Source of the DNA: Anaerolineae bacterium | GTDB taxonomy: Bacteria; Chloroflexota; Anaerolineae; Anaerolineales; UBA4823 | Direction: 5' to 3' | Assembly: GCA_041301185.1 (NCBI GenBank) | Contig: JBFYSV010000198.1 | Location: forward strand, 1-62,961 | Length of the DNA stretch: 62,961 nucleotides | In this document: positions 16,610 to 55,929 of the stretch, in pieces | How positions within the stretch are numbered: position 1 is the first letter of the stretch | How the letters are laid out: each line of letters starts with the position of its first letter | Program-made: the position numbers and the translations under genes | The notes under the pieces: generated by a model | Database searches by the model: none | What the model saw: the letters and a program-made list of their open reading frames with translations, nothing else | What the model was told of the DNA's origin: nothing

Positions 16610-17554
16610 TCAGGATATGGTCTTATCGTCTCCCATCTCCATCGGCAGGTCCAACTCAGCCAGGCCGAGGCGGATGATCTCGCGAATTTCACGGTATTTC
16701 GGGCTTTCAAACGGCGGAAGAGCCATCGGCAGGCGAGGATAACCGGCATTGTAGCCGCGGGCATACAATCCCATATGGGATACTAGGGTGCTATCGATAA
16801 AGTGCATCTTGCGGCTCAGGTCCATCATCACCAGATATGCCTTCTCCGCTTTGTCGAACTCGCCTGCAAAAGTGGTTTGGACAAGGTAAGTGATCACCTC
16901 CGGCGCCCAGTTGTTCATGCCGGCAATCATCGCCCGGATGCCCATGTGGTAATACGGCAGCCAGCCTTTGGAGGTGCCCAGGATGATCTCGAAGTTCTTG
17001 TGGTTCACCCTGGCATCGTAATACAGGCTGCTCAGGAAACCTACATCCACCGGGCTATCCTTCAATCCGGCTAAGCCCAACTCTTGCAGCTTGTAGACTG
17101 TATTCAGCGTAAAGTTGAAGCGGGAGGTCTCTGGATTGTTGTACGCATAAACCGGTAGAGTCACGCTTTCGACGATCTCTTTATAAAAACGAATGATCAG
17201 GTCTTCAGAGTGCTTGTAATAGAATGGAGGCACAGCCGAGATAGCATCCACACCAATCGCCTGGGCGGCCCTGGCTAACTCGATGGTCGATTTGGTATCG
17301 ATACAGCCTACGTGGGGTAGCAGAATTTTCCCGCTGAACCCGGCAGCCACTTCTTTGGCTATTTGATAGACCTGCACCCGCTCCTCGATGCTCATCAATG
17401 GACCTGCGCCATACGAGCCAGTCAGGAATAAGCCATCCACGCCTTTCTCAAACATCCACTGCATATGCCAGCGGGTCTTATCAGGATCGAGGTTGCCCTG
17501 GGCATCAAAAAATGTAATATTCGGTACCAATGAACCCTTGATCATTTTTATCAC
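16610..17554 (-). CDS. DapA/NanA-family class I aldolase or dehydratase
   Basis: GVDGLFLTGSYG, AVPPFYY, YNNP, GLKDS (Schiff-base Lys). Confidence 0.88.
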   Translation of the reverse strand: MIKMIKGSLVPNITFFDAQGNLDPDKTRWHMQWMFEKGVDGLFLTGSYGAGPLMSIEERVQVYQIAKEVAAGFSGKILLPHVGCIDTKSTIELARAAQAIGVDAISAVPPFYYKHSEDLIIRFYKEIVESVTLPVYAYNNPETSRFNFTLNTVYKLQELGLAGLKDSPVDVGFLSSLYYDARVNHKNFEIILGTSKGWLPYYHMGIRAMIAGMNNWAPEVITYLVQTTFAGEFDKAEKAYLVMMDLSRKMHFIDSTLVSHMGLYARGYNAGYPRLPMALPPFESPKYREIREIIRLGLAELDLPMEMGDDKTIS

Positions 17555-17567
17555 TCCTTAAGTTCGC

Positions 17568-19064
17568 TCAAAGTTTGCCAGCCTGTTGCAAGACGTGTAA
17601 AAATCGCTGGTACTGCTCCTGGTAATATCCATGGGCGGACAGATCCGGATCGACCCGCTTTCTGGCAACAGACAAACCTTCAAAATCATCCAGCCCAGAT
17701 TTCATCCCCAGAGCAATCATCGCCAGCATGGCAGCTCCACGGGCAGAGCCCTCGCTGGTTTCCGGCACAATCACCGAAGCGCCAAACATATCCGCTGCAA
17801 TCTGCAACCAGAGAGAAGAAGCAGTCAGCCCGCCAGTAACATATACTTCTTCGAACTGCCTGCCAAGCAAACCTTGGATTGCCTCAGAGATCCGGAAAAT
17901 TGAACGGGTGATGCCCTCCAACACAGCCCTGGAGATATGGCCGCGGCGATGCTTCAAATCCAGCCCAATAAAACCGCCGCGGGTCTCCGGGCTCCAATCG
18001 GGGCATTGTGCGCCGCTGAGGTAGGGGATAAACAGCAAGCCCTCGGCGCCTGCCGGCGCATCACCTGCCAGCCTGTCCACCTGGCTGTATAGCGAGGCAG
18101 AAAAGCCACCTGACGCACTTGCCTGGGCCAGGAAGAAGTTCTCCAAAAACCATTCCAGTACAATCCCGCCACTGCTGACCATACCCCCAGTGACCCAAAG
18201 ACCGTCATCAATTAAATATGTCCAAAGCTGGCCTGCCGGATCGATCCGGGGTTGGCGAATCACTGCCCGGGCTGCCGCGCTGGTGCCCACATTCACCGCT
18301 AACCCATTCGTTCCGACTGCCCCGACCCCCAGGCTGGCGAGCGGGCCATCTCCCCCACCGATGATGAGTGGCAGGTCCGGTGGAATGCCGGCATTTTGGC
18401 TAGCCTCGCCGCGGATCGCAAGCACAGTGCGGGTGGACACTAGCTCCGAGAGGTTCTCCGCCGCAATACCTAACTGGTCCAATGCGGTTGCATCCCAGGT
18501 TTTATTTTTTATATCGAATAAGCCGGTAGCTGAAGCCATCGACCAATCTGCCAGGAATTGTCCGGTCAGCCGATGGATGACATATTCCTTGATCGAAATA
18601 AAGCGGACATCCTCAGGCAGGCTGATGTGTTCTTTGATCCACTGGATCTTTGACCGGGGGAAGACCGAGTCGATTGGGCAGCCTGTTCGCTGGCGGATGC
18701 CATCCGCCTGGGGATTCTGGCGCAAGCGAGCGGCTTGTTCGGCACTGCGCGTATCGGACCAGGGGATCGAGTTTGTCAGCGGCTTGCCGTCTGCGGTTAC
18801 TGCCAGGATGCTGTAGAGCTGGGCGCTGATCGATAATCCCCGGACTACACGCCCTGGCGGGCAGGCTTGCAGGGCGGCCCGGACGGCTTCAAGGACTCCC
18901 TGGAAGATCGCCTCTGGCTCCTGCTCGCTCCAGCCCTTGTTAGGTACGTGGATGGGGTAATGCCTCCTGACCAGAGCGACCTGCTTCAGGCTGGCATCAA
19001 ACAAGACTGCCTTGGTCGCCCCAGTACCGATATCCACTGCGAGGATTAGATCTCTCTCACTCAT
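17568..19064 (-). CDS. FGGY carbohydrate kinase (gluconokinase-like)
   Basis: AVDIGTGATKA, WSDTRS, GGGDGPLASLG, PYLSG..CPDW, RAVLEG. Confidence 0.88.
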   Translation of the reverse strand: MSERDLILAVDIGTGATKAVLFDASLKQVALVRRHYPIHVPNKGWSEQEPEAIFQGVLEAVRAALQACPPGRVVRGLSISAQLYSILAVTADGKPLTNSIPWSDTRSAEQAARLRQNPQADGIRQRTGCPIDSVFPRSKIQWIKEHISLPEDVRFISIKEYVIHRLTGQFLADWSMASATGLFDIKNKTWDATALDQLGIAAENLSELVSTRTVLAIRGEASQNAGIPPDLPLIIGGGDGPLASLGVGAVGTNGLAVNVGTSAAARAVIRQPRIDPAGQLWTYLIDDGLWVTGGMVSSGGIVLEWFLENFFLAQASASGGFSASLYSQVDRLAGDAPAGAEGLLFIPYLSGAQCPDWSPETRGGFIGLDLKHRRGHISRAVLEGITRSIFRISEAIQGLLGRQFEEVYVTGGLTASSLWLQIAADMFGASVIVPETSEGSARGAAMLAMIALGMKSGLDDFEGLSVARKRVDPDLSAHGYYQEQYQRFLHVLQQAGKL

Positions 19065-19195: not shown

Positions 19196-20341
19196 TTATT
19201 TGTAGTACAGGTAGGACTTGACGCCTTCGCCCAGATAGGTTTTCCAGACGATAAAGTTGTTTTCGTCATTCCAATCCAGGTCGCCGTCAAACATCACGTG
19301 CAGGTGATTGTTGTTAAAGATCAGGTAGCCCTGGTTGTCAAAGGCCATCCCGTCTACCCAATTCATCAGCTTGTCGGTGATGAATGGGCTGAAGGTGCGC
19401 TTTACCGGATCGTAAATCCCGATGCCCATGCCCTCCAGCATGGTGTAATAGATCAGCCCGCGGTTGTCTGCCCCCATACCATCTGTGTTAGTGCCCTTAT
19501 CACCCAGATCCTGGACGGCTTTCTCAATCTCTTCTCCCGGGATGGTGTAATCTTGCAATAAAGCGGTATCCAAAGCATACAGGTTACGCCCGGTTAGGGG
19601 GCACCAGTAGACGGTCTTGCGATCGGCAGACAGGGTGATCCCATCCGCGCCGGTGCGATTCGGGCGATCTTTCCAGGCTGGTCTCCCGGCGATCTTAAAC
19701 CAAAAGCCGGGGGCATCCTGGGTGCTCACGTGCTGGTGCAGAACCCGCCGGAATTGCTTGGTGCGCATGTTATAGACGATCAAACCACCCTGCAATGGAT
19801 CGGTAAAAATGCCCGAATCAGCAATGTAGATAAAACCATTGGCATTATCGACAACCAGATCGTTCAGGAATGAGGCCGTGAAATCTGCAATCTCGCTGGG
19901 TACCGGGACCGAATCAATCAGCTCGTTCCTGGTCATGTCCCAGCAAACAAGTTTTTGATCACCTTCCTTGCAGGGTGCTCCGTTGATATGGCCCTGATCC
20001 AGGAACCAGGCCCGGTTGTACTCGTCGATTTCCCAGCCCAAGACGGATTGCAGTGCTGCAGGATCGCCAACTTTGTTCATCTCCCAGGTGGGGTAGGCAG
20101 ACAGGATTGCCTTTCCATCGACCATTTCGATCTTGTTTACGGTTGCCGGGATTCCAAGCACCCAGCGCGGCACGGACAGATAATAATTACCGGCGTGGTC
20201 CACCTTGAAGCCGGCCGGCATCGCGCCTTTCCAGTACTCTTTTTCGTAGAATTCCTTTTTCATTTCCTCGTCCTGGAAGGACCACTCCAGGCGATTCCAC
20301 TTGATGATGGCTTCATATTCTCCGATTTTTCTTGCAGACAT
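19196..20341 (-). CDS. Major royal jelly protein/yellow family six-bladed beta-propeller, no signal peptide
   Basis: YLSVPRW..GIPAT, LQSVLGWEID...WFLDQG, FLNDLVVD, YIADSG, GADGITLS, TDGM..D, WVDGM. Confidence 0.8.
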   Translation of the reverse strand: MSARKIGEYEAIIKWNRLEWSFQDEEMKKEFYEKEYWKGAMPAGFKVDHAGNYYLSVPRWVLGIPATVNKIEMVDGKAILSAYPTWEMNKVGDPAALQSVLGWEIDEYNRAWFLDQGHINGAPCKEGDQKLVCWDMTRNELIDSVPVPSEIADFTASFLNDLVVDNANGFIYIADSGIFTDPLQGGLIVYNMRTKQFRRVLHQHVSTQDAPGFWFKIAGRPAWKDRPNRTGADGITLSADRKTVYWCPLTGRNLYALDTALLQDYTIPGEEIEKAVQDLGDKGTNTDGMGADNRGLIYYTMLEGMGIGIYDPVKRTFSPFITDKLMNWVDGMAFDNQGYLIFNNNHLHVMFDGDLDWNDENNFIVWKTYLGEGVKSYLYYK

Positions 20342-20384: not shown

Positions 20385-21212
20385 TCAGTGTTTTCTATCT
20401 CTCTGCATCCAATGTTGATAAAAATCTTGCGCATTCTCAAAAACCGCAGCAGGTTGAGCTGTCCCATTATCAGGATGATAGGAGGGCGTTAATGAAGATA
20501 GCACCAGGAATGGCCGAATCCCGGCATTTACGGCACCCTGGATATCGATTTCGGGTTGGTCGCCCAACATACCCGTCCTGCTGGCCTCGCTACCCAGGCG
20601 TTCCAATGCCATCTGAAAACCCGGCAGGGCTGGTTTGCCGGTTACCCGCGCCCGGACGCCGGTGGTGGCTTCCAGGGCAGCCTGCACAGCCCCAGAGGCC
20701 GGCACCACCTGCTCGCCGTCGGGGTAGCTGGGGTCTGGATTGGAGCTGATAAAGTGGGCTCCGGCACGGATCGCCAGGGCAGCCGATTTGAGCTTCTCGT
20801 ATGTGAGCTGGCGGTCCATGCCGATTACTACGTAGCTGGCGGCTTGATAGTTACTCTGGGTGACCCCGAAACCACGCTGCTCCAACGCTTCGATCAAGCC
20901 CGACTCGCCAATCACATAACAAACTGTACCCGGCTCAGCTTCAGCAGCTAATACTTGCGCGGTCACGCGCGCCGCAGTCAATAATATATCTTGTGGATTC
21001 GGCACACCCAGGCGAGACAACTTCTCGACGTGGTGTTGAAACGTGTAAGTGGTATTGTTGCTCAAAAAAAGATAGGGCGTGTCGCGCTGGTTGAGATGGG
21101 CAATTAAATCAACCGCTCCGGGCAGAACACGACCGCCCTCATATAAAACTCCATCAATATCAATGATCAGGGCATCGATTTGCTGCAGGTGGTGAAGGCG
21201 CTGATCAGGCAC
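20385..21212 (-). CDS. HAD-IIA (NagD-like) hydrolase/phosphatase
   Basis: DIDGVLY, FLSNN, NPD, GKP, MLGDQPEIDI; probable GTG start at 21212. Confidence 0.9.
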   Translation of the reverse strand: MPDQRLHHLQQIDALIIDIDGVLYEGGRVLPGAVDLIAHLNQRDTPYLFLSNNTTYTFQHHVEKLSRLGVPNPQDILLTAARVTAQVLAAEAEPGTVCYVIGESGLIEALEQRGFGVTQSNYQAASYVVIGMDRQLTYEKLKSAALAIRAGAHFISSNPDPSYPDGEQVVPASGAVQAALEATTGVRARVTGKPALPGFQMALERLGSEASRTGMLGDQPEIDIQGAVNAGIRPFLVLSSLTPSYHPDNGTAQPAAVFENAQDFYQHWMQRDRKH

Positions 21213-21216
21213 CGCA

Positions 21217-21975
21217 CTACCAGGCAAGCCAGCCTCCGTCCACGGCGAGATCTGCTCCGTGAATATAGTCGCCAGCTTCAGAGGCAAGCAGTACCACCGC
21301 TCCCTGCAAGTCCTCGGCGGTGCCCCAGCGCTTGGCAGGCATGCGCGCTTCCAGGTTGAATTTGGGATTTCCCACCAGGGGGTCGGTCAGGTCGGTATGC
21401 ATATATCCAGGAGTGATGGAATTGACATTCACGCCTTTTGCTGCCAGATCGTTGGCTAACGCCTTGGTGAACCCAAGGATGCCGTGCTTTGAGGCGGTAT
21501 AACCAGGGACTATCGTCCCACCTTGATGGGAAAGGAGAGAAGCGATGTTAATGATCTTCCCCCCGCCCTGTTTCACCATCTGGCGGGCGGCAGCCTGAGC
21601 CAGGAACCAGGGAGCGATCAGGTTGGTTTGCAGGGTGTCGTTCCAATACTGTGCGGGGTAATCCAGCACATTCTCGCGCGGGCAAATCCCAGCATTATTG
21701 ACCAGGATGTCAACTCGACCCCATTCCGAAACAACCTCATCGATCAGCCGGGTAAAATCCTCGGGAGTGGCGGTGAGCAGATCGACCTGCTTCCACATAT
21801 GGCGGCGCCCCAGGGCTTGGACTGCCTGGCGAGTCTCGATAGGGTCATTGCGGTCAAAGCTGACTATATCCGCACCGGCCTCCGCCAGCCCGATCGCCAT
21901 GCCTTTGCCGAGGTTCCGCCGACTGCCGGTTACAATTGCGATTTTTCCATCCAGGCGAAATTTATCCAGTATCAT
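21217..21975 (-). CDS. SDR oxidoreductase, KduD-like (2-dehydro-3-deoxygluconate 5-dehydrogenase family)
   Basis: DILVNNAG, KIINIASLLSHQGG..VPGYTASKHG, NSITPGY, AVDGGWLA; start ATG 21975. Confidence 0.85.
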   Translation of the reverse strand: MILDKFRLDGKIAIVTGSRRNLGKGMAIGLAEAGADIVSFDRNDPIETRQAVQALGRRHMWKQVDLLTATPEDFTRLIDEVVSEWGRVDILVNNAGICPRENVLDYPAQYWNDTLQTNLIAPWFLAQAAARQMVKQGGGKIINIASLLSHQGGTIVPGYTASKHGILGFTKALANDLAAKGVNVNSITPGYMHTDLTDPLVGNPKFNLEARMPAKRWGTAEDLQGAVVLLASEAGDYIHGADLAVDGGWLAW

Positions 21976-22000: not shown

Positions 22001-22759
22001 TTAGCGCGCCAGGAATCCGCCATCCACCGGCAGCAGGATGCCGTGCACATAATCCGATGCCGGCGAAGCCAGGAAGATCAATGCCCCTACCAGGTCCTCC
22101 GGCAAACCCCAGCGACCGGCAGGCACCCGGTCCATGATCAGTTTGTTGCGGTCTGGATCTTCCATGAGTGGGATGTTCATCTCGGTCGCCATGTAGCCGG
22201 GTGCGATGGCATTCACATTCACCCCCTTGCTGGACCACTCGTTAGCCAGGGCTTTGGTCATCTGGGCGACCCCGCCCTTGCTGGCTGCATAGCCAACCGT
22301 CAGGTAGCCGCCGCCAAAACTCAGCAGCGAGGCGATATTGATGATCTTGCCATGCCCCTGCTTTAGCATGGATTGCCCGGCAAGCTGGGCCATGAAAAAG
22401 AGCGAGTTCAGATTGACTTCCAGGACGATGTCCCAGTCCGCTTGGCTCATTTCCTCTGCCTTGCTCCAGCGAGTGATGCCTACATTGTTGAGCAAGATGT
22501 CCAACCCGCCCAACCCGTCCACTGCCTGTTGGAATGCTTTGCGTAGCTCATCCCGGTTGGAAAGGTCTGCCTGAACGGCAAAGACCCGCCCGCCATGGGC
22601 GCCTATCTGCTTGGCGACATCGTGGACACCCTCCAGCACGTCGATCAGGGCAAGCTCAACTCCGGCATCAAACAACCCTTGTGCCATGCCTCTCCCCAGG
22701 CCGCGTGACGCTCCGGTAACGATGGCTTTCTTCCCGGCAACAGAAAACATATCGGTCAT
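22001..22759 (-). CDS. SDR oxidoreductase, KduD/gluconate 5-dehydrogenase-like
   Basis: TGASRGLG, KIINIASLLSFGGG, YAASKGG, NAIAPGYMAT, VDGGFLAR. Confidence 0.88.
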   Translation of the reverse strand: MTDMFSVAGKKAIVTGASRGLGRGMAQGLFDAGVELALIDVLEGVHDVAKQIGAHGGRVFAVQADLSNRDELRKAFQQAVDGLGGLDILLNNVGITRWSKAEEMSQADWDIVLEVNLNSLFFMAQLAGQSMLKQGHGKIINIASLLSFGGGYLTVGYAASKGGVAQMTKALANEWSSKGVNVNAIAPGYMATEMNIPLMEDPDRNKLIMDRVPAGRWGLPEDLVGALIFLASPASDYVHGILLPVDGGFLAR

Positions 22760-25026: not shown

Positions 25027-25037
25027 TTTCCACCTGC

Positions 25038-26171: not shown

Positions 26172-26419
26172 TTTGCCTCCTGACCTGTTTGGTTAAGGGT
26201 TGCAATCTGAGCCTGTAGTGCTCGCCTTTCCTGGCGGACTTTGCGAATGCCAACAACAATCCGGGCAGCAGCCAATCCAACCGCAACGATGATCATCAGG
26301 ACTACTGATGTTTGTTGCGACGAGAAGAGCGGCTCAATGAATCTTAGCCAGATAATCCCAACGCCAATAAAGATCATGAAGGCTTGAAAAGCCACTTCCC
26401 ACATTTGCCAGAATACCAT
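26168..26419 (-). CDS. Small two-TM membrane protein within the ABC operon
   Basis: Two hydrophobic stretches; SD AGGAGA; stop overlaps the next start (ATGA). Confidence 0.75.
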   Translation of the reverse strand: MVFWQMWEVAFQAFMIFIGVGIIWLRFIEPLFSSQQTSVVLMIIVAVGLAAARIVVGIRKVRQERRALQAQIATLNQTGQEAK

Positions 26420-26432
26420 GTCTGCTCTCCTT

Positions 26433-34896: not shown

Positions 34897-34900
34897 TACA

Positions 34901-45607: not shown

Positions 45608-45608
45608 A

Positions 45609-48203: not shown

Positions 48204-48536
48204 ATGTCAGACGGTCAACGCGGGGCAATCATCCAGGTGAAAGTCAAGCTGTTCGGTCACCTGAAACAGATCGCCCAACTGGCAGTCTTTGACATGGAAA
48301 GCCAGGCTGGTTCCAGCGTGTACGAAGTGATCCAGGCGATTGCCCAGCGGCTGGGGGATGATTTCCGAAAGGCACTCCTGGAGCAAAGCGGTAATCTGCA
48401 CGGCGGGATTGAGATTGTGCTCAACAGCGAGCACCTGCCTGCCAGGCGCATCCGTACGATTTATATTTCCGAGGATTGCGAGCTGTTCATTATGCCCATG
48501 ATCGAAGGTGGGTTGCAGTCCATCGAGCCAAAATAG
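48204..48536 (+). CDS. MoaD/ThiS ubiquitin-like protein with a C-terminal extension (GG-LQSIEPK)
   Basis: VKLFGHL...IVLN...LFIMPMIEGG. Confidence 0.8.
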   Translation: MSDGQRGAIIQVKVKLFGHLKQIAQLAVFDMESQAGSSVYEVIQAIAQRLGDDFRKALLEQSGNLHGGIEIVLNSEHLPARRIRTIYISEDCELFIMPMIEGGLQSIEPK

Positions 48537-48562: not shown

Positions 48563-50401
48563 ATGATAAAAAGCGGATATACAAAAAAATTGCTCCGGAT
48601 CAACCTAACAACCCGCGAGCACTCAGTCGAACCCATTGAACTACAGGAATATGAGCAATTCCTCGGCGGGCGGGGCACGGGGGCTGCCTGGTACTGGCGT
48701 GAAATCCCCCCCGAGATAGCTCCCCTGGAGGCTGCCAATAAACTAGGATTCTTCACCGGACCGATGACCGGCGCGCCCCTGGTTTCCACCACGAAATTCC
48801 AGTTGGCTACCAAAGGTCCTGAGACGGGGCGCTACCTGTGCTCCAACTCCAGCGGAAATTTCGGACCCCGCCTGCGCGAGGCCGGTTACGATGCCCTGAT
48901 ACTAGAAGGCGCATCTGAGCAGTGGACGGCGGTAGTGATTGAGAATGATGAAATCCGCTTCATTGATAATGCTGCCTGGCAGGGTCAGACTCCCATGCAA
49001 TCTCGCCAGAGGCTCCTCGACCAGTTGGAAGGCAAGAAATGGGCTACGATGAGCATCGGACCGGCTGCTGAAAACAAGGTGGTCTTCTCCTCGATCTTCG
49101 TAGATGATGGGCGCGCTTTCGGGCGCGGCGGCGGCGGTGCGGTGCTGGCTTCCAAGAGAGTCAAAGCGCTGGCAGTACGCGGCGACCAGCCGCTTCCGGT
49201 TGCCGATAAGCAGAAATGCAAAGAGATCGCCGACCTGGCGCGCAACGATTTGAAAACCTCGCGTGCCAAGCACCGCCAGTACGGAACTGCCCAACTGGTA
49301 GAAATTATCAATGCCCTGGGTTGCATCCCTACCCGCAACTTCCAAACCACCTGGGAATCGCCCGACCAGGTGCAGGGCGTGTATGCCCAGACTCTACACG
49401 ACCAGCATTACGTGCGCAACTACGCCTGCTACCGGTGCTCGGTCGCCTGCGGGCAGGTAGCTGAAGTGAAAGAAGGTGAATTTGCTGGAGCCTCCGCCAG
49501 GCCAGAGTACGAGAGCATTGGTCTGCTAGGTCCTTCTTGTGGCATTTACGACATGGCTGCGGTCATCGCGGCCAACCAGGTTTGTGACGACCTGGGAATG
49601 GATACGATAACCGCCGGGAACATGGTCGCCCTGGTCATGGAGCTGTATGAGCGCGGCCTGGTCTCGCCGGAAGAGAACGAAGGCCTGCTAGTGCGCTTCG
49701 GCGACGGGAAAGCCATGCTGGAGATGCTGCGCCTGATCGCCGAAAAGCGCGGTCTGGGGGCGGTGCTGGCAAGCGGCGCCCTGGGCGTCATCCAGGCGCA
49801 CCCGGAATGGGAGCCCTACCTGGTGCATTCAAAAGGCATGACCTTCCCCGCTTACGATCCGCGCGGCTTCAATGGGATGGGGCTGGCGTACGCCACCTCA
49901 TCCCGCGGCGCATGCCATAATGTCGGCGGCTACACCGTCAGCGATGAGCTGCTAAAGCCAAAATACGATCGCTTCGCCACTCAGGGCAAAGGTGAGCTGG
50001 TAAAGTCCTTGCAAGACAACCGCGCCTATATCGATAGCCTGGGGCTTTGCACGGTAGTGCGCGGGGCGTATAATTTCACTACCAACCCGGCGCCTGAGAC
50101 CTTGCTGGCGATCACCGGCTATGATTTTGCACCTCACCTGATGGAGATCGGCGAGCGGGTATCGAACCTGGAGCGGATGATCCTGGTGCGCGAGGGCGTC
50201 CAGCGCAGCGATGACAGCCTGCCACCGCGCATGATGGAAGCCATCCCCTCCGGCCCGGCTGCCGAGCATCTTATCAGCTACGAGATGCTCGACCAGATGC
50301 TAGACGATTACTACACCTTGCGCGGTTGGGATCCGAACGGGGTTCCTTTGCCAGCAACCCTGGAACGTCTGGGGCTTTTGGAATTGGTTATGCCGGCATG
50401 A
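48563..50401 (+). CDS. Aldehyde:ferredoxin oxidoreductase (AOR family), copy 2
   Basis: GAVLASK.VKAL, CYRCSVAC, PEYES, CDDLGMDTI, KG...PAYDPRG, RGACH, DSLGLC; start ATG 48563. Confidence 0.94.
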   Translation: MIKSGYTKKLLRINLTTREHSVEPIELQEYEQFLGGRGTGAAWYWREIPPEIAPLEAANKLGFFTGPMTGAPLVSTTKFQLATKGPETGRYLCSNSSGNFGPRLREAGYDALILEGASEQWTAVVIENDEIRFIDNAAWQGQTPMQSRQRLLDQLEGKKWATMSIGPAAENKVVFSSIFVDDGRAFGRGGGGAVLASKRVKALAVRGDQPLPVADKQKCKEIADLARNDLKTSRAKHRQYGTAQLVEIINALGCIPTRNFQTTWESPDQVQGVYAQTLHDQHYVRNYACYRCSVACGQVAEVKEGEFAGASARPEYESIGLLGPSCGIYDMAAVIAANQVCDDLGMDTITAGNMVALVMELYERGLVSPEENEGLLVRFGDGKAMLEMLRLIAEKRGLGAVLASGALGVIQAHPEWEPYLVHSKGMTFPAYDPRGFNGMGLAYATSSRGACHNVGGYTVSDELLKPKYDRFATQGKGELVKSLQDNRAYIDSLGLCTVVRGAYNFTTNPAPETLLAITGYDFAPHLMEIGERVSNLERMILVREGVQRSDDSLPPRMMEAIPSGPAAEHLISYEMLDQMLDDYYTLRGWDPNGVPLPATLERLGLLELVMPA

Positions 50402-50652
50402 TAACCCTAAACCTCAGGTTGTTAGGTGGGTTGCACCAGGGAAAGATAGCCTCTCCGATGGTATTGAATTTACCAGACGGGGCAAGCATTCAAGATCTGG
50501 AGACCGAACTAAAAGAATTGGGCATCCATCCAGATTCACCTGAGGTAATCATCAGTCTATCGGGCAAGGGGCTGCGCCAGTATCCTGCTGGGCATTTGTT
50601 GCAGGGCGGTGAAGAGCTGATCGTATTTCCCAACATTTCCGGAGGGTTGTGA
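50398..50652 (+). CDS. MoaD/ThiS ubiquitin-like protein ending GG-L
   Basis: LRLLGGL...LQGGEELIVFPNISGGL; ATGA overlap with the AOR2 stop. Confidence 0.8.
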   Translation: MITLNLRLLGGLHQGKIASPMVLNLPDGASIQDLETELKELGIHPDSPEVIISLSGKGLRQYPAGHLLQGGEELIVFPNISGGL

Positions 50653-50703: not shown

Positions 50704-51483
50704 ATGGTGAACAATAATTTTACAGACATATCTGCCAGTGATATCGATAAGGATCTGCCGATCCCGTATCACTACCAGCTGCGCGAGCTGCTGCGAGATG
50801 AGATCACCTCTGGTCACTGGGATGTGGGCGAGCGCCTTCCCAGCGAGCGCGAGCTGTGCGATGCATTTAATCTCAGCCGCACAACCATCCGGGAGGCGAT
50901 CGACGCGCTGGTAAGCGAGGGCTTATTGCGCCGCGAGAAAGGCCGGGGGACGTTTGTCTCCGAGCCAAAAATCACGGAAAAATGGTTGGGAGCACCGGAT
51001 AGCTTTACCGATTCGATGGTGGAACAAGGCTACCATATCGAAACCAAAGTGCTCACCCTTTCGATAGTCCCAGCACCGCACCGCGTTGCCCGCGAGCTGC
51101 GCTTACGATCCGAAGAGCCAGTGATTGTTCTTGACCGCCTGCGCCTGATCTTGAATGAACCAATCCTTGTAGTTACCTCGTACATCTCTGAGAAACACTG
51201 CCCCGGATTGGTAATGGAGGACTTTACCAGCCACTCGCTGTACCAGCTGTTTCGCGAAAAATACAATATCCATCTGGGGCGCGCCAAACGGGTGATGGAA
51301 GCCGTAGCCGCCGACGACCTGGAGGCCAGCCTGTTAAATGTCAGGCCAGGGGCACCCTTGCTGCTGATCGAGAGCACAGCCTACCTGGAAGACGGTACCC
51401 CGATTGAATATTTCAAAGCCCGCCACCGCGGCGACCGCACCCGGTTCCAGGTGGATTCATTCAAGTCACTCCTAACACGATAA
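50704..51483 (+). CDS. GntR-family regulator, HutC subfamily (UTRA domain)
   Basis: PYHYQL, LPSERELC..F.LSRTTIREA, GRGTFV, SLYQL, RGDR. Confidence 0.94.
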   Translation: MVNNNFTDISASDIDKDLPIPYHYQLRELLRDEITSGHWDVGERLPSERELCDAFNLSRTTIREAIDALVSEGLLRREKGRGTFVSEPKITEKWLGAPDSFTDSMVEQGYHIETKVLTLSIVPAPHRVARELRLRSEEPVIVLDRLRLILNEPILVVTSYISEKHCPGLVMEDFTSHSLYQLFREKYNIHLGRAKRVMEAVAADDLEASLLNVRPGAPLLLIESTAYLEDGTPIEYFKARHRGDRTRFQVDSFKSLLTR

Positions 51484-51542: not shown

Positions 51543-53066
51543 ATGGCAGGTCAATATCTCATGGGGATAGACATCGGTACGCAAAGCACGCGCGCCGCAA
51601 TACTCGACCTGGACGGAAAAGTGGTCGCCAGCGCGAGCACTGCGCAGGATATGCAGACCCCTCGACCGGGATGGGCTGAGCAAGACCCGCAAATCTGGTG
51701 GGATAGCACCCTGGTCAATATCCGCAAGGCAATCCAACTATCTGGCATCTCGCCCAAAGAAATTCTGGGTATCGGGGTGAGCGGACAGATGCATGGTTGC
51801 GTATCGATCGATGAGAAAGGCGAGCTGCTTAGCCATGGCGTGCAGCTGTGGTGCGATAAACGCAGCGCTGACCTGGTGGAGGAATTCAAAAAGCGACCCG
51901 AAGCCGCAGATGGCTACCGTATTGCGGGCAGCCCGCCGGTAGCGAACTGGTTTGGTTTCAAGATCAAGTGGGTTCAGGTGTACGAGCCGCATGTCTACCA
52001 GAATGCCTGGAAGTTCTTTCTGCCCAAGGACTACATCAACTATAAGCTGAGTGGAGCGGTTGCAACCGATCATACCGAGGCGTCGGGCGCTTTCCTGATG
52101 GACGCCCGCAGCGAAGACTGGTCGCCTGTGCTGGTTGACCAGGTGGGAATTAATGCTGGGCTGCTTCCCCCCATCCATGCCAGCTCGGATGTGATTGGGT
52201 ATGTGACGGATGAGGTCGCCGCGCTGACCGGGCTGGCAGCCGGAACCCCGGTGGTGGCTGGCGCAGGCGATATGCTCTGCATGCTGCTGGCAGCCGGCAT
52301 CACCCGTCCGGGCAACGCTTCTGACGTTACCGGCACCTCATCGATTTTCTCTGTGTTCACCGAAGAGCCGGTTTTCGATGTCCGCCTGATGAACCTGCAC
52401 CACGTCATGCCCGGCTGGATTCCCTTTGGGATTATTGACTCGGGCGGTGGCTCATTGAAATGGTTCAAGGATTCGTTCTGCCAGAGTGAAGTCGAAGAAG
52501 CGCAGAAAACCGGGGTGCAGGTGTACGATATCCTCAATGCCCTGGCAGCCAGAGTCGAGCCAGGCGGCGAAGGGCTGCTGTATTATCCTTACCTGATGGG
52601 CGAGCGCACCCTGGGCACGCCCTACGCCAGAGGCGTGTTCTTCGGCGTCACGCCCCGCACCGGCAAAGGGGCGATGGTGAGAGCCATCATGGAAGGCATC
52701 ACCCTGGAGCTGCGCCGGACAATGGAGATTGTAGAGAATGCCGGTCACGAGGTTGGGGTAATCTACCACAGCGGCGGCGGAGCCTACAGCGATGTCTGGT
52801 CACAGATCAAGGCAGATATCTACCAGAAGAAGGTAGCGACTTTCGAGACCTCCGAGGGCGGTATCCTGGGATCTGCCATCCTGGCGGGCGTCGGTGCCGG
52901 CGTTTATGAAAACCCGGCTGCCGGGGTCGAGCATTGCCTGCGGGTGGCAAAAGAATTCATGCCCAACAAGGAGCTGCGTCCTCGCTACGATGATCTCTTT
53001 GAGCTTTTCAAAGATCTCCATGACCGACTGCAGGAGCCTTTTAACCGGCTGCCTGCTATCCCCTGA
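51543..53066 (+). CDS. FGGY carbohydrate kinase (xylulokinase-like)
   Basis: GIDIGTQSTR, SGQMHG, PKDYI...L.G, PYLMGERT, RAIMEG; GDMLC differs from the XylB GDNAA. Confidence 0.88.
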   Translation: MAGQYLMGIDIGTQSTRAAILDLDGKVVASASTAQDMQTPRPGWAEQDPQIWWDSTLVNIRKAIQLSGISPKEILGIGVSGQMHGCVSIDEKGELLSHGVQLWCDKRSADLVEEFKKRPEAADGYRIAGSPPVANWFGFKIKWVQVYEPHVYQNAWKFFLPKDYINYKLSGAVATDHTEASGAFLMDARSEDWSPVLVDQVGINAGLLPPIHASSDVIGYVTDEVAALTGLAAGTPVVAGAGDMLCMLLAAGITRPGNASDVTGTSSIFSVFTEEPVFDVRLMNLHHVMPGWIPFGIIDSGGGSLKWFKDSFCQSEVEEAQKTGVQVYDILNALAARVEPGGEGLLYYPYLMGERTLGTPYARGVFFGVTPRTGKGAMVRAIMEGITLELRRTMEIVENAGHEVGVIYHSGGGAYSDVWSQIKADIYQKKVATFETSEGGILGSAILAGVGAGVYENPAAGVEHCLRVAKEFMPNKELRPRYDDLFELFKDLHDRLQEPFNRLPAIP

Positions 53067-53072: not shown

Positions 53073-53801
53073 ATGACTGAAACCGTTCAATTATTTGCAA
53101 CCTGTATCCTGGACACCATTTACCCAGAAACCGGCGATGCTGTGGTGCGCGTGCTGGAGCGGGCTGGCGTCAAGGTGGAATTTCCCGCCGGACAAACCTG
53201 CTGCGGGCAACCAGCTTTTAATGGTGGCATGCGCTCGCTGGCTCGCCAGATGGCAATCCATACCATCCAGGTATTTGAACCCGCACCCGGTCCAGTGGTG
53301 GTCCCTTCCGGTTCTTGCGCCGCCATGATCCGCCATAGCTACCTGGAGCTATTCGCCGATGACCCCGTCTGGCTGCCGAGAGCCAGGGCGCTGGCTGCCC
53401 GCACCTATGAGTTCAGTGAATTTCTGGTGGACTATATGGGAGTGATCGATGTAGGAGCCAGGTTCCCGGGTAAGATCACCTATCACTCGTCGTGCCATCT
53501 TTTGCGCGAGCTTGGCGTCGACCGCCAGCCGCGCCTATTGCTGCAAGCCGTCAAAGATGCTCAATTTGTAGAGTTGGCAGAAACAACAGAGTGCTGTGGC
53601 TTTGGCGGTGTCTTCTCGGTTGAACACGGCGAGATTTCCGCGGCCATGCTGGAGCGCAAACTAGCCAATCTTGAAGACAGCCAGGCGCCGGTGGTTGTCT
53701 CCTGCGACGCCGGTTGCATCACCAACATCAACGGCGGCTTGCACCGCAAAAAGATGCCTCAAAAGGCGCTGCACATCGCCGATATCCTGGGCAGCACGTA
53801 A
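53073..53801 (+). CDS. lutA: Lactate-utilisation protein A (CCG-domain Fe-S protein)
   Basis: QTCCGQPAFNGG, PSGSC, YHSSCH, CCGFGG.FS, D.GC. Confidence 0.9.
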   Translation: MTETVQLFATCILDTIYPETGDAVVRVLERAGVKVEFPAGQTCCGQPAFNGGMRSLARQMAIHTIQVFEPAPGPVVVPSGSCAAMIRHSYLELFADDPVWLPRARALAARTYEFSEFLVDYMGVIDVGARFPGKITYHSSCHLLRELGVDRQPRLLLQAVKDAQFVELAETTECCGFGGVFSVEHGEISAAMLERKLANLEDSQAPVVVSCDAGCITNINGGLHRKKMPQKALHIADILGST

Positions 53802-53868
53802 TCTTATACGGGCTGGTGAACTTATTTCCAGGACACCGTCCCCCACTACCTGAGACCCGGACTTACCT

Positions 53869-55929
53869 ATGCCTGATCAATTCAAGTCCCATATCCACAA
53901 GGCGCTGGAAAACCCTAATTTGCAAATTGCCCTGGATAACAACGCCACCCGCCGCCGGGAGGTGCGCCTGTCCAGCTACCCGTCGCTTCCAGAAGATATC
54001 CAGGTGCTCCGCAAGCGCGCCCATGCGGTGCGCGCGGATGTGATCGCCAATCTCGATCGCTACCTGGAGCAATTCGCCCGCCAGGCATTTGCCAACGGCA
54101 TGATCATCCACCACGCTGCCAATGGAGAAGAAGCTGCCCAGATCGTGCTTGAGATCGCCCAGCGCAAAGGAGCGCGCCTGGTTGCCAAGGCGAAATCGAT
54201 GCTGAGCGAAGAGATCCATCTAAACCACGTCCTGGAAGCGGCAGGGATTCAGCCGGTGGAGACCGACCTGGGAGAGTATATCGTCCAGCTGCGCAAGGAG
54301 CTGCCAGCCCATATCATCACCCCTGCCGTTCACCTGCGCAAGGAAGACGTCGGTCGCACCTTTGAGGAAAAGCTCGGCCTGCCCTATACGGATGATATCC
54401 CCACCATGACCAGCGCCGCCCGCCGGGAGTTGCGCCAGGTGTTCCTGGATGCAGAGATTGGCATATCCGGGGTAAATTTCGGCGTCGCAGAGACCGGCAC
54501 CATCAGCCTGGTGACCAACGAGGGCAACGGGCGGATGGTGGTCACCCTGCCGCCGGTGCACATTGCCTTGATGGGCATCGAGCGGCTCGTGCCTACCCTG
54601 GATGACCTGGCGCTGATGCTGTATCTCCTGCCCCGTCATGCCACCGGGCAAAAACTCTCTGTGTATGTCAGCCTGCTGAACGGCCCTTCCCCTCCACCAG
54701 CCAACGCTGCTCAGCGGGACGGCCCCCTGGAGCGGCATATCGTACTGGTGGATAACGGGCGGCGAGCAATCAGCCAATCGCATCTGGCGGAGGCGCTCTA
54801 CTGCATACGTTGCGGGAGTTGTCTGAACGCCTGCCCCGTGTTTCGCGAGATCGGCGGTCATGCTTATGTAGGCATTCACGGGCAGGGCAGCATCTACCCC
54901 GGACCAATCGGCTCGGTGCTTTCTCCGGCATTGTTCGGGCAATCCGAGTTCGGTCACCTGGCGCGAGCCAGCAGCCTGTGCGGGGCGTGCAAAGAGGCCT
55001 GCCCGGTGGATATCGACCTGCCCAAGCTGTTGCTGCGCATCCGGGCGGGCAAGATTGAAGCCCCAGGCCCACAGGACGCTCAGCCGGCAGCAAAACCCAA
55101 TGCGCCCGCCTACCTGCGGATGGGATTGCAGTTTTTCACCTGGATTGCCACCTCTCCGTGGCGTTTTGCGAACGCGCAGCGATTGGCGGGGGTCTTCAGC
55201 CGGGTTATTGCTCCGGTCCAGCCGTGGATTCGTCTGCCCGCTGTGACCGGCTGGGGATACTCCAAAGATTTCCCCCGACCGGCTGCCAAGCCATTCCGGG
55301 ACCGCTGGGCAGATCGCCAGGCGGAGCAGCAACAAAACCCAATCACCGGGAATGAGGGCAAGCAGGCAGCCGACTCTCCCGTTGAGACCCCAGTTCAGCA
55401 GAAACCGCCGGATGCCTCCCTGCTGGATCGATTCACTGCCGAGCTGCTCGCGCTTGGCGGCAATTACCAGGCTTGCCGATCCACCCAGCTCAGCCAGCTT
55501 ATCCTGGACTTCCTGCGCCAGCGAGATATCACCCGCCTGCAAACCTGGCAGGCTGCCTGGCTTCCCGATGGACTGATCGATGAACTGCGCGCCCAGGGTA
55601 TCGAGGTTGTTACGCAGTGGGATGCCTCCACCCAGGTCGGGTTAACCGGCGCACAGGCGGCGATTGCCGAAACGGGCACGTTGGTGCTGATCGGCGCGCC
55701 AGAGCACCCGCTATCCGCCTCGCTGGTGCCGGCGATTCACCTGGCCGTCCTGCCTGCCAGCCAGATCTATCCAGGCATGGCCGAAGCGCTGAAAATTCCT
55801 GCCATCCGCCGGGCGACGGCAGCCACATTGATCAGCGGACCGTCACGCACTGCCGATATCGAGATGACCCTCACCGTAGGAGTGCACGGACCAGGCGAGG
55901 TACACGTCTTCTGTTTGACAGATCGTTGA
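53869..55929 (+). CDS. lutB: LutB-LutC fusion (LUD + 4Fe-4S + LUD)
   Basis: ETDLGEYI.QL..E.P.HI..P, CIRCGSCLNACPV, LCGACKEACPV.I; C-terminal AETGTLV...SGPSRTADIEMTL..GVHGP. Confidence 0.9.
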   Translation: MPDQFKSHIHKALENPNLQIALDNNATRRREVRLSSYPSLPEDIQVLRKRAHAVRADVIANLDRYLEQFARQAFANGMIIHHAANGEEAAQIVLEIAQRKGARLVAKAKSMLSEEIHLNHVLEAAGIQPVETDLGEYIVQLRKELPAHIITPAVHLRKEDVGRTFEEKLGLPYTDDIPTMTSAARRELRQVFLDAEIGISGVNFGVAETGTISLVTNEGNGRMVVTLPPVHIALMGIERLVPTLDDLALMLYLLPRHATGQKLSVYVSLLNGPSPPPANAAQRDGPLERHIVLVDNGRRAISQSHLAEALYCIRCGSCLNACPVFREIGGHAYVGIHGQGSIYPGPIGSVLSPALFGQSEFGHLARASSLCGACKEACPVDIDLPKLLLRIRAGKIEAPGPQDAQPAAKPNAPAYLRMGLQFFTWIATSPWRFANAQRLAGVFSRVIAPVQPWIRLPAVTGWGYSKDFPRPAAKPFRDRWADRQAEQQQNPITGNEGKQAADSPVETPVQQKPPDASLLDRFTAELLALGGNYQACRSTQLSQLILDFLRQRDITRLQTWQAAWLPDGLIDELRAQGIEVVTQWDASTQVGLTGAQAAIAETGTLVLIGAPEHPLSASLVPAIHLAVLPASQIYPGMAEALKIPAIRRATAATLISGPSRTADIEMTLTVGVHGPGEVHVFCLTDR

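Follow-up and report, generated by a model that had tools for sequence, protein, structure and literature searches.

A conserved two-armed gene island of an Anaerolineae bacterium with a predicted sugar module and a predicted anaerobic, ATP-yielding back end

The window analysed here is contig JBFYSV010000198.1 of an Anaerolineae bacterium (positions 1-62,961), in which positions 16610-55929, about 39 kb, are probably one conserved catabolic island with two functional layers. One layer is a sugar module, and the other is an anaerobic back end built around aldehyde:ferredoxin oxidoreductases (AORs), a 2-oxoacid:ferredoxin oxidoreductase (OFOR) and an ADP-forming, SucCD-type coenzyme A (CoA) ligase. 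Comparison with other genomes supports a coupling of predicted sugar(-acid) cleavage to AOR, OFOR and ligase. The reading rests on gene families, conserved synteny, modularity and promoter elements, from which every substrate, direction and flux named below is predicted.

Gene calls were taken from a six-frame listing of open reading frames (ORFs) with their translations, families were assigned by Pfam and NCBIfam profile scans, and starts were refined by homologue length and ribosome-binding sites, which are plausible across the closely spaced genes. About 38 intact genes form two closely packed arms that diverge from a 284-bp region (34783-35066), the minus arm running from 34782 down to 16610 with the gene of an IclR-family regulator as its first gene, and the plus arm occupying 35067-55929. 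All intergenic gaps are shorter than 100 bp except two (231 bp before the gene of the substrate-binding protein, SBP, and 131 bp before FGGY1, by the refined starts), and 4-nt overlaps join korG to sucC, sucC to sucD and AOR2 to the 84-aa ORF behind it. Every family named in a first-pass annotation of this DNA is present at its place, as are the two packed arms and their single divergent promoter region, although a HAD phosphatase, a cupin and a small membrane protein had been left out of its inventory. Judged by their divergence, the paralogues are old (AOR1 and AOR2 share 31% identity, the three D-2-hydroxyacid dehydrogenases 31-44% and the two FGGY kinases 28%), which argues for distinct roles of each copy; the two short-chain dehydrogenases share 45%. 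By Pfam, the genes on either side have unrelated functions: to the left are glycosyltransferases, LexA, a MacB-type exporter and an XdhC-family protein, to the right an NmrA/DUF2867 protein and META-domain proteins. The boundaries at 16610 and 55929 are therefore reasonable. The features are listed below, the control region first and each arm then in its order of transcription; where two bit scores are given, the second is the cut-off of the model.

34783-35066, between the arms: divergent control region (promoter scan, repeat search)
33955-34782, minus strand: IclR-family regulator (HTH_IclR and IclR_C domains)
32480-33931, minus strand: NAD(P)-dependent aldehyde dehydrogenase (ALDH), 483 aa (PF00171, 2.8e-161)
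31657-32382, minus strand: ADC-family protein, 241 aa (PF06314, 4.7e-42)
30999-31643, minus strand: Eda, KDPG/KHG aldolase, 214 aa (PF01081; TIGR01182 passed, 194 vs 156 bits)
30020-30976, minus strand: D-2-hydroxyacid dehydrogenase a (HADH_a), resembling phosphoglycerate dehydrogenase (PGDH) and glyoxylate reductase (2-Hacid_dh and 2-Hacid_dh_C)
23932-29788, minus strand: CUT1-type ABC importer of six genes (lipoprotein SBP, two permeases, a 94-aa transmembrane protein, two ATPases)
26168-26452, minus strand: the 94-aa membrane protein of that importer (no Pfam match)
22832-23875, minus strand: Zn-dependent medium-chain (polyol-type) alcohol dehydrogenase, Zn-ADH (ADH_N and ADH_zinc_N)
22001-22759, minus strand: KduD-like short-chain dehydrogenase/reductase 1, SDR1 (adh_short)
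21217-21975, minus strand: KduD-like SDR2 (adh_short)
20385-21287, minus strand: HAD-IIA (NagD-type) phosphatase (Hydrolase_6 and HAD; HAD-SF-IIA model passed, 124 vs 100 bits)
19196-20341, minus strand: cytoplasmic MRJP/SGL six-bladed propeller (PF03022, 1.9e-31; PF08450, 2.6e-6)
17568-19064, minus strand: FGGY kinase 1 (FGGY1), gluconokinase/xylulokinase-like (FGGY_N and FGGY_C)
16610-17545, minus strand: DHDPS/NAL-family pyruvate aldolase-like protein, 311 aa (PF00701, 1.9e-42)
35067-35456, plus strand: small cupin (Cupin_2)
35459-36613, plus strand: PfkB kinase, resembling 2-keto-3-deoxygluconate (KDG) kinase (PF00294; best solved relative Thermotoga maritima KDG kinase 2afb, 1.1e-36)
36625-37623, plus strand: D-2-hydroxyacid dehydrogenase b (HADH_b), CtBP-like (Pfam domains)
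37625-38779, plus strand: Fe-dependent alcohol dehydrogenase (Fe-ADH), lactaldehyde-reductase-like (Fe-ADH and ADH_Fe_C)
38798-39745, plus strand: D-2-hydroxyacid dehydrogenase c (HADH_c) (Pfam domains)
39761-41659, plus strand: tungsten/molybdenum-pterin AOR1 (AFOR_N and AFOR_C; CxxCxxxC motif)
41701-43386, plus strand: orphan IorA-like thiamine pyrophosphate (TPP) protein (IOR_alpha, 440 vs 651 bits, profile positions 6-533 of 595)
43392-46163, plus strand: four-subunit OFOR, KorD-KorA-KorB-KorG (Pfam)
46160-48177, plus strand: SucC-SucD, ADP-forming CoA ligase (SucD: TIGR01019, 385.3 vs 353.2; NF004230, 380.8 vs 336)
48204-48536, plus strand: ThiS/MoaD-like small protein 1 (PF02597, 4.3e-5)
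48563-50401, plus strand: AOR2, 612 aa (AFOR_N and AFOR_C; closest to AOR-type structures)
50398-50652, plus strand: 84-aa protein, weakly MoaD-like (no Pfam match of its own; C-terminus ...SGGL)
50704-51483, plus strand: GntR/HutC-type regulator with UTRA effector domain (GntR and UTRA)
51543-53066, plus strand: FGGY kinase 2 (FGGY2), xylulokinase-like (TIGR01312 XylB, 368 vs 380 bits)
53073-55929, plus strand: LutA and a fused LutB-LutC (LutA with two CCG; fusion with two LUD, Fer4 and LutB_C)

By protein look-up, the exact SucC protein of the island was otherwise found only on one 4-kb JGI metagenome contig, and relatives at 63-89% identity are numerous in metagenomes, the named ones coming from Chloroflexota, Anaerolineae or Anaerolineaceae metagenome-assembled genomes (MAGs). 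These best matches suggest an uncultured, presumably anaerobic Chloroflexota bacterium of Anaerolineae type as the source of the window. The layout of the island recurs, wholly or in part, in at least three other Chloroflexota/Anaerolineae assemblies at 62-98% protein identity. It is found in full on contig FWPV01000472.1 of GCA_900174595.1 (loci L053 and L056; 62-90% identity), where a block from the SBP gene to the DHDPS-family gene (78.6-99.8 kb) and a block from the divergent IclR and cupin genes to LutBC (104-125 kb) are separated by 4.3 kb, a size that fits HADH_a-Eda-ADC-ALDH. The plus arm is kept in L043 (ERZ25039527, 84-98% identity) and L044 (ERZ25039502), and its core is colinear in L002 and L003. 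A layout conserved in other genomes argues that the clustering is not due to chance, and the first-pass proposal of a conserved unit, which a lack of synteny would have spoken against, is supported. Some genes of these relatives are split or interrupted, namely AOR2 (12404-14456) and FGGY2 (15388-16912) in L043, where PfkB and HADH_b are also called as one 721-aa product, and HADH_b (2168-3140), Fe-ADH (3167-4322) and SucD (11154-12033) in L044; these are probably assembly frameshifts rather than pseudogenes.

The Kor genes lie upstream of the ligase in all ten contexts of this SucC clade. Downstream of SucD, tblastn detects MoaD1-like/AOR2 sequence in seven of them (L001-L003, L043, L045, L046 and L056; the MoaD1-like sequences at 30-100% identity), and the protein encoded there in L044, L047 and L048 gives only a weak or faint ThiS/MoaD match by Pfam, the L047 module, truncated or decayed, being uninformative. 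L002 and L044 have no AOR2, and the IorA-like gene is present in three of the seven loci that cover its position (the window, L002 and L043, with L003, L044, L045 and L056 lacking it); by this distribution both genes are accessory, and apparently dispensable in relatives. A rearranged locus (L045, GCA_964501865.1), with a SucC of 66% identity, has on one strand the order LarA-PfkB-HADH-FeADH-HADH-AOR-KorDABG-SucCD-MoaD-AOR2, continued by a small ORF-GlcF-like-GlcD-like-ADC-ALDH-Eda, and in it LutABC is replaced by a GlcD-like FAD oxidase and a CCG Fe-S protein. Since ADC-ALDH-Eda are still joined to AOR/Kor/SucCD after this rearrangement, the two arms appear functionally linked, in agreement with the earlier claim that they belong together, and an exchange such as that of LutABC for a functional analogue is classically taken as a sign of a shared pathway.

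The sugar module is also found by itself. In an Acidimicrobiia MAG (L057), DeoC-FGGY-ADC-cupin (GPI type)-FGGY-HADH-Eda-PTE faces DHDPS-FGGY-MRJP-small ORF-permease-permease, with identities to the window of 81% for ADC, 62% for DHDPS, 66% for MRJP and 50-58% for the permeases, and no AOR, Kor or SucCD occurs within 10 kb of it. The module stands there beside a tyrosine integrase and a TrwC-type relaxase (L057, 1404-5936), and the recurrence of this arrangement in many samples (24 contigs read) hints that an integrative mobile element carries it. On a JGI contig, FGGY-ADC faces the same six-gene importer, near genes for a dihydroxyacetone kinase, a triose-phosphate isomerase and a protein of the xylose-isomerase fold. 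Plasmids of Proteobacteria (L061, Rhizobium etli pRetNXC12e; L062, Pantoea; L063, Neorhizobium; L064, Caballeronia) carry clusters with a GntR regulator, an MRJP-like protein 40-42% identical to the propeller of the window, a TRAP or MFS transporter, a CtBP-like HADH, an RraA-family aldolase and a KdgK-like kinase, to which the R. etli cluster adds an SDR and a cupin. A signal peptide is present in the MRJP-like proteins of R. etli and Caballeronia, the only two with translated N-termini. The nearest solved relatives of the Rhizobium TRAP SBP are EFI TRAP SBP entries, the best being 4p47; several of these entries bind small hydroxy acids such as erythronate and pantoate. These proteobacterial clusters look like an uncharacterised acid-sugar pathway.

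As the module exists without AOR, Kor and SucCD in L057 and partly on plasmids, it would be portable and older than the anaerobic association. HADH_b in particular is 38-42% identical to the ‘C-terminal binding protein’ genes of the R. etli and Pantoea MRJP clusters, and HADH_b, PfkB and the cupin would belong to the sugar module and not to a ‘C3 hydroxyacid chain’. Three D-2-hydroxyacid dehydrogenases are indeed present, as first annotated, but their joint placement in such a chain is weakened, at least for HADH_b, by its company of MRJP-like and KdgK-like genes on the Rhizobium and Pantoea plasmids.

The back end, in turn, recurs beside sugar-acid genes in a distant analogue, bacterium GBS-1 (L005; SucC 40% identical). 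Its order is TctB-TctA-SDR-FGGY-DHDPS-IlvD/Edd-KorDABG-SucCD-HADH-AOR, followed by an SAF/GarD/UxaA-type dehydratase-Ldh_2-LarA-IlvD/Edd, so that the earlier claim that AOR, OFOR and ligase are tied to sugar(-acid) genes extends beyond the close relatives. L004, a Desulfobulbaceae MAG, combines a TctCBA transporter and a GntR regulator with Fe-ADH and KorABG-SucCD, and has an AOR nearby beside an ABC importer. The rearranged L045, the portable sugar module and the L005 analogue together argue that the AOR/OFOR/ligase set is an anaerobe-specific back end placed on sugar(-acid) catabolism.

Specifically, the sugar module would comprise the ABC importer, Zn-ADH, the two SDRs, the MRJP/SGL propeller, the HAD phosphatase, both FGGY kinases, the cupin, PfkB, HADH_a, HADH_b, the ADC-like protein, the DHDPS-type aldolase and Eda. 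It would (i) import a sugar, polyol or sugar acid, (ii) convert it by oxidation or epimerisation, lactone or ester hydrolysis and phosphorylation to 2-keto(-3-deoxy) acids and (iii) split these with the aldolases to pyruvate plus a phosphorylated triose or a free aldehyde. This would be the logic of the branched Entner-Doudoroff (ED), Dahms and Weimberg pathways, and the module exists without the back end in aerobes.

For the DHDPS-family protein the top NCBIfam match is the archaeal KD(P)G aldolase model (132 vs 390 bits), its best solved relatives are the E. coli YagE 2-keto-3-deoxy sugar-acid aldolases, and it looks like an aldolase, not a dehydratase. The candidate role of KdgD dehydratase, on which the first-pass annotation had built an anaerobic Weimberg/glucarate-like route, is rejected on those structural relatives and on 58 vs 374 and 73 vs 278 bits on the KdgD models, and the Pfam scan found no sugar-acid dehydratase of the enolase-superfamily or IlvD/Edd type among the approximately 38 island proteins or elsewhere in the window. 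FGGY1, with 376 vs 649 bits on gntK_FGGY, stays beside the MRJP-like and DHDPS genes in L050-L055 and L057. The propeller is a candidate lactonase or hydrolase, and its best solved relative is the uncharacterised 2qe8. Both SDRs fall short of the kduD model TIGR01832 (297 and 300 vs 339), and HADH_a of the PGDH model (313 vs 454). The top NCBIfam matches of Zn-ADH, scyllo-inosose 3-dehydrogenase and threonine dehydrogenase, are likewise under cut-off; the FGGY2 and Zn-ADH/SDR set would fit ketose and polyol interconversion. The kinases of the island are two FGGY and one PfkB, with no glycerate kinase family among its proteins.

The SBP has sugar- and sorbitol-binding proteins as its nearest solved relatives. 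The 94-aa membrane protein gene sits between the second permease and the first ATPase and overlaps both; the protein is 68% identical in L053, ORFs of similar size occupy its position in L057 (67 aa) and in JGI contig 3300041966 (96 aa), and with it this type of importer may have an atypical seventh component. The cupin is a candidate sugar or sugar-phosphate isomerase, its nearest solved relatives including cupin-type phosphoglucose isomerases (PGI, 5e-8) and DddK-type cupins; KdgF or KduI are unsupported by these relatives, and the match to the KduI structure 1ywk is a short stretch at 4.5e-4.

The ADC-family protein is not an Adc orthologue by its score on NF002614 (78.8 vs 150). Its only solved relatives found are true acetoacetate decarboxylases, with no solved family-V aldolase-dehydratase among the structure matches, and the alignment to 3bh2 retains the Lys-Lys pair and the Glu, which makes decarboxylase chemistry plausible and suggests, as a candidate reaction, the decarboxylation of a beta-keto (3-oxo) sugar acid to a ketose. 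More than 120 protein clusters, some of them from Acidimicrobiia- and cyanobacteria-labelled MAGs, contain it at 76-90% identity, and a search of plasmids of cultured bacteria gave only matches of about 30% identity or less. It is much more conserved than its neighbours, and on a cyanobacterial contig its gene lies near PhoX and a DeoC-family aldolase.

The back end would consist of the two tungsten-dependent AORs with their MoaD-like proteins, ALDH, Fe-ADH, HADH_c, LutABC, KorDABG, the IorA-like protein and SucCD. Free aldehydes would be oxidized to acids with ferredoxin or reduced to alcohols, 2-hydroxyacids would be oxidized to 2-oxoacids, and one 2-oxoacid would pass through OFOR and the SucCD ligase to give an acid and ATP. 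Of the energy-conserving chain that the first-pass annotation had proposed, the coupling of AOR, OFOR and SucCD to sugar genes survives, and a novel acyl-CoA is disfavoured by the orthodox SucD and KorA.

Both AORs are nearest to AOR-type enzymes rather than to GAPOR, FOR or BamB (AOR1 to 9mqx and 1aor; GAPOR model, 27 bits), and their broad-specificity subtype offers no substrate clue. Of the two MoaD proteins first annotated, the one at 48204-48536 stands by its own PF02597 match, and the 84-aa protein owes the label MoaD-like only to its GGL end and to the precomputed ThiS match of its orthologue in L056 (47% identical). ALDH gives similar scores, all under cut-off, on models of succinate semialdehyde dehydrogenase (SSADH), AldA and the lactaldehyde, glyceraldehyde and 2-oxoglutarate semialdehyde (KGSA) dehydrogenases, the KGSA models giving 379-387 bits against cut-offs of 750-770 and SSADH/AldA similar or higher values. 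Fe-ADH scores 339 vs 523 on TIGR02638. HADH_c is under cut-off with PGDH (315 bits) and glyoxylate reductase (264 bits); a similar gene adjoins SucCD or Kor in L005, L007, L018, L026 and L037, and such genes lie before SucCD in three deltaproteobacterial MAGs. The IorA-like protein, encoded between AOR1 and korD, has neither the C-terminal Fe-S domain nor an IorB gene, and might be an alternative catalytic subunit using the Kor delta and gamma subunits. LutABC is a predicted Fe-S complex for lactate (2-hydroxyacid) oxidation, LutB passing the L-lactate model TIGR00273 (451.9 vs 444.8).

For the last steps, the choice that we tentatively place first is 2-oxoglutarate to succinyl-CoA to succinate plus ATP, which would make an anaerobic Weimberg-like ending; pyruvate, hydroxypyruvate or another oxoacid as the feed of OFOR and ligase would, even taken together, be less likely. 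The Kor subunits have the delta-alpha-beta-gamma architecture (Fer4 as a 2x[4Fe-4S] ferredoxin, POR_N and PFOR_II, TPP_enzyme_C, POR), KorA passes the generic OFOR-alpha model NF006412 (534 vs 411), and the best-scoring named specific models are those for 2-oxoglutarate, even though these are not passed (KorA, NF007206, 382 vs 579; KorB, NF007207, 282 vs 364). SucD is above cut-off on both curated models of the alpha subunit of succinyl-CoA synthetase (SCS), and SucC, although under cut-off (NF001913, 331.3 vs 370; TIGR01016, 313.4 vs 375.6), has the SCS beta subunit of Thermus aquaticus as its best solved relative (277 bits), and a malate-CoA ligase model gives 285 vs 604. KorDABG followed by sucC also occurs in Methanobacteriaceae, with KorA and KorB 47-53% identical and a Kor that we take to be the 2-oxoglutarate enzyme, and korDABG-sucCD is a predicted ancient 2-oxoglutarate/succinyl-CoA unit. 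Moreover, an anaerobe with an incomplete cycle needs a dedicated 2-oxoglutarate:ferredoxin oxidoreductase (KOR) and SCS, whereas an aerobe whose sugar module makes a tricarboxylic acid (TCA) cycle intermediate does not, which also favours 2-oxoglutarate.

The rival that survives best, itself rather improbable, would start from a C3 (or C2) aldehyde, namely lactaldehyde, glyceraldehyde or glycolaldehyde from non-phosphorylative aldol cleavage, and run by AOR/ALDH and then HADH/LutABC through a hydroxyacid to pyruvate, hydroxypyruvate or glyoxylate, which the Kor OFOR would turn into an acyl-CoA, with the SucCD-type ligase acting on acetyl- or glycolyl-CoA to give an acid and ATP. LutB passing the L-lactate model, Fe-ADH nearest to lactaldehyde reductase, ALDH at 420 vs 500 on an AldA-type model and the likeness of the DHDPS-type protein to YagE, which releases glycolaldehyde or glyceraldehyde, all point this way, as does the company of the module in other loci (LarA and a GlcD/GlcF-type oxidase in L045, LarA and Ldh_2 in L005); SucC and the 2-oxoglutarate-specific Kor models, being under cut-off, leave room for it. 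Against it stand SucD passing the SCS-alpha equivalog, a genuine SCS as the best solved relative of SucC, the classical 2-oxoglutarate unit korDABG-sucC and pyruvate models far under the KOR models (PorA, 107 bits, against 382-534); an anaerobe, furthermore, normally has a housekeeping pyruvate:ferredoxin oxidoreductase, so that a pathway-specific one is not needed. The SqwKL-type ligase that the first-pass annotation had invoked is disfavoured by the same SucD and SucC matches and by the korDABG-sucC order in Methanobacteriaceae. The annotation had itself named central-metabolism orthologues as evidence against its proposal, and for the ligase and Kor this is what was found, since SucD and KorA pass curated models. 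The LutB, Fe-ADH, ALDH and LarA signals nevertheless make a lactaldehyde, glycolaldehyde or glyceraldehyde branch likely too, beside the 2-oxoglutarate ending.

Several observations weigh against the two-layer reading with its 2-oxoglutarate ending. The window encodes no dehydratase that would account for the formation of a 2-keto-3-deoxy acid, and the proteobacterial MRJP clusters have none either; such enzymes are present only in the distant analogue L005, not in the island. LutB and the lactaldehyde-reductase-like Fe-ADH point to lactate and pyruvate, and so does LarA with lactate/glycolate-type oxidases in L045 and L005. ALDH is as close to AldA as to the KGSA dehydrogenases and cannot be assigned by model scores among KGSA, succinate semialdehyde, lactaldehyde and glyceraldehyde, and as most enzymes are well under equivalog cut-offs, their specificities are guesses. 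The neighbours of ADC vary by lineage (ALDH in the window, an FGGY kinase in L057 and the JGI contig), so its role may differ from the one implied here, and the 231-bp internal gap together with two regulators would permit separate control of sub-blocks. Two candidate ways round the absent dehydratase can be named, (i) an already deoxygenated substrate such as an unsaturated uronate, which the KduD-like SDRs, the KDG-kinase-like PfkB, Eda and the IclR regulator fit and the cupin, not being KduI, does not, and (ii) a non-canonical step by the MRJP-like or ADC-like protein.

It is quite unlikely that KorDABG-SucCD, perhaps with AOR, is a housekeeping segment of an incomplete TCA cycle that lies beside sugar genes by coincidence. 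In all ten contexts of the SucC clade the ligase has Kor upstream and is followed by MoaD/AOR-type genes, HADH/Fe-ADH/AOR1 or AOR1 is present as well in the seven loci that extend further upstream, and the link to ADC-ALDH-Eda outlives the L045 rearrangement; overlapping stop and start codons bind the Kor-SucCD block into the operon, and the distant L005 independently embeds Kor-SucCD-HADH-AOR between sugar-acid dehydratases and an aldolase-family gene. Such a coincidence is favoured by the curated central-metabolism models passed by SucD and KorA, the occurrence of Kor-SucCD without sugar genes in Methanobacteriaceae, Synergistaceae and other MAGs (L006, L008, L032, L041) and the origin of most close synteny in related Chloroflexota.

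A sulfosugar variant (sulfolactaldehyde to sulfolactate, sulfopyruvate, sulfoacetyl-CoA and sulfoacetate plus ATP with an SqwKL-like ligase) is scarcely credible, as its analogy is one of enzyme classes only, with an ALDH that is SSADH-like as sulfolactaldehyde dehydrogenases are, and it is opposed by the orthodox SucD, by the weak match of the IorA-like protein to sulfopyruvate decarboxylase (30 bits) and by the absence among the approximately 38 proteins of a sulfoquinovosidase, sulfoquinovose isomerase, sulfo-aldolase or transketolase, sulfonate exporter or sulfite-releasing family. Sulfoglycolysis as such was also discarded, there being no GH31, YihS-type, LacD/YihT-type, transketolase or TauE-type family among the island proteins.

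A more ambitious version of the two-layer reading, in which the island is a complete, undescribed and strictly anaerobic sugar-acid pathway with several new enzyme functions, is doubtful. The MRJP/yellow propeller would there be a lactonase-type entry hydrolase, and the ADC-family enzyme a 3-oxo decarboxylase and the non-phosphorylative counterpart of OtnC, UlaD or C11orf54, a human decarboxylase unrelated to the ADC-like protein; the tungsten AORs would be the physiological oxidants of sugar-derived aldehydes in a mesophilic bacterium, and the KOR/SCS pair would harvest ATP, perhaps with an IorA-like subunit borrowing Kor delta and gamma.

Known systems share parts of the island. In the branched (semi- or non-phosphorylative) ED pathway of thermophilic archaea (Thermoproteus tenax, Sulfolobus, Picrophilus), free glyceraldehyde is oxidized by AOR or ALDH, and the island shares with it AOR/ALDH for the unphosphorylated aldehyde, a medium-chain Zn dehydrogenase, a propeller of the lactonase fold and a putative pair of KD(P)G-type aldolase (DHDPS family) and PfkB KDG kinase. 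It differs in its bacterial, mesophilic-type lineage, in lacking gluconate-dehydratase and glycerate-kinase families, and in having Eda, the ADC-like protein, FGGY kinases and the downstream OFOR and SucCD in addition. The Weimberg, Dahms and glucarate routes convert a pentonate or hexarate by a 2-keto-3-deoxy acid either to 2-oxoglutarate semialdehyde and 2-oxoglutarate or to pyruvate and glycolaldehyde. The YagE-like aldolase and an ALDH resembling those of KGSA/AldA/SSADH type are shared with them, 2-oxoglutarate would be the natural feed of KorDABG-SucCD, and the analogue L005 has IlvD/Edd and GarD/UxaA-type dehydratases beside Kor-SucCD-AOR. Their known versions, however, are aerobic and end in the TCA cycle, whereas the island has no dehydratase and an un-KdgD-like DapA member, and in it AOR, KOR and substrate-level phosphorylation would replace NAD(P) enzymes and respiration.

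Pyrococcus-type peptide fermentation uses POR, VOR, IOR and KGOR followed by ADP-forming acyl-CoA synthetases or SCS, with AOR oxidizing side-product aldehydes. AOR, OFOR (including an IorA-like protein) and an ADP-forming ligase, giving reduced ferredoxin and ATP by substrate-level phosphorylation, are common to both, but the island has sugar-type genes instead of transaminases, a single operon and a ligase of SucCD rather than ACD type. As a result of the dehydratase, glycerate kinase and KdgD findings above, the island is not a member of the branched ED, Weimberg or Pyrococcus-type systems; it combines putative elements of the three in one bacterial operon, and seems to be an as yet undescribed variant of known oxidative sugar pathways that would work anaerobically and yield ATP. 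The first-pass annotation had not recognized the combination as a described pathway, and full-text literature searches, within whose reach subscription literature did not fall, found no description of it.

The remaining parallels are narrower. With the KduI/KduD-KdgK-KdgA(Eda)-KdgR route the island shares two KduD-like SDRs, PfkB, Eda, a CUT1 importer and an IclR gene that diverges from those of a cupin and a kinase. Its cupin, however, is not KduI, its SDRs and IclR stay under the KduD and KdgR cut-offs, the island has no lyase or unsaturated glycuronyl hydrolase, and the route explains at most six of the approximately 38 genes. The sulfo-transketolase variants of sulfoglycolysis have an ADP-forming SucCD-type sulfoacetate-CoA ligase (SqwKL), and the ending of a sugar pathway with such a ligase to gain ATP is shared; their acyl-CoA comes from a CoA-acylating aldehyde dehydrogenase, not an OFOR, and the island has no sulfosugar-specific genes. 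In Paracoccus litorisediminis, one large cluster gathers several C4-C6 sugar-acid routes into a ‘metabolic funnel’, in which an SDR makes a 3-oxo sugar acid, the phosphorylation and subsequent decarboxylation of which yield a ketose phosphate (Watanabe et al. 2026, PMC12994016). The predicted logic of SDR/HADH, FGGY and ADC-like decarboxylase has a precedent in this system, with the differences that its kinase is of the DUF1537 and its decarboxylase of the class II aldolase type, that it is aerobic and that its cluster has no AOR, OFOR or ligase (PMC12994016).

The divergent region has the layout expected of a divergent promoter under repressor control. Of the six best sigma-70-like promoter matches in a 20-kb scan, five lie within its 284 bp, including a plus-strand promoter TTGATT-N17-TATAAT at 34958-34986, and two copies of the 19-nt box ATCATCYTGTCATTACCAG (34900-34918 and 34998-35016, about 100 bp apart) are unique in the window, where 0.03 matches are expected by chance, one of them immediately following the -10 element. 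The promoter recurs, with the two boxes, in the equivalent intergenic region of L044 (boxes at 299-312 and 412-425) and L056 (201-214 and 315-328), in both of which the IclR and cupin genes also diverge. Along the arms, promoters and terminators are no more numerous than in shuffled controls; the informative signals are the clustering of promoters in the divergent region and its conservation only. The box pair is likely an operator pair for the IclR or the GntR regulator. The former is under cut-off on the BhcR and KdgR models, the gene of the latter comes after the SucD-MoaD genes in L002, L044, L047 and L056, and together with the divergent promoter the two regulators probably co-ordinate both arms.

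Sediments and digesters harbour abundant fermenting Anaerolineae, for whose carbon metabolism gene lists are almost the only source of knowledge. If the two-layer reading is true, oxidative (non-phosphorylative) sugar-acid routes would not be limited to aerobes and thermophilic archaea and would yield energy without respiration, as ferredoxin-dependent AOR and KOR with substrate-level phosphorylation would replace NAD(P)-dependent ALDHs and the TCA cycle. It would also give the bacterial MRJP/yellow proteins, the 241-aa ADC-family protein and the orphan IorA-like proteins their first physiological contexts. Cultured strains of Rhizobium, Pantoea and Caballeronia carry the portable sugar module, which puts its substrate within reach of experiment, and the proteobacterial MRJP clusters offer a route to the function of bacterial MRJP/yellow proteins.

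Just outside the island (14098-16376) lie genes for an XdhC/CoxI-family protein, a cyclophilin-like PF04126 protein and a DUF166 protein, the latter two of which also follow the DHDPS gene in L053, but not in L052. The XdhC/CoxI family is a chaperone family for molybdenum-cofactor insertion, and its member here could have a role in AOR maturation. Further to the left, a minus-strand cluster for cell-envelope sugar nucleotides (186-6346), followed by the LexA gene and unrelated to the island, encodes two GT4 glycosyltransferases, an FkbM methyltransferase, a hexapeptide transferase, a UDP-GlcNAc 2-epimerase and a UDP-sugar dehydrogenase.

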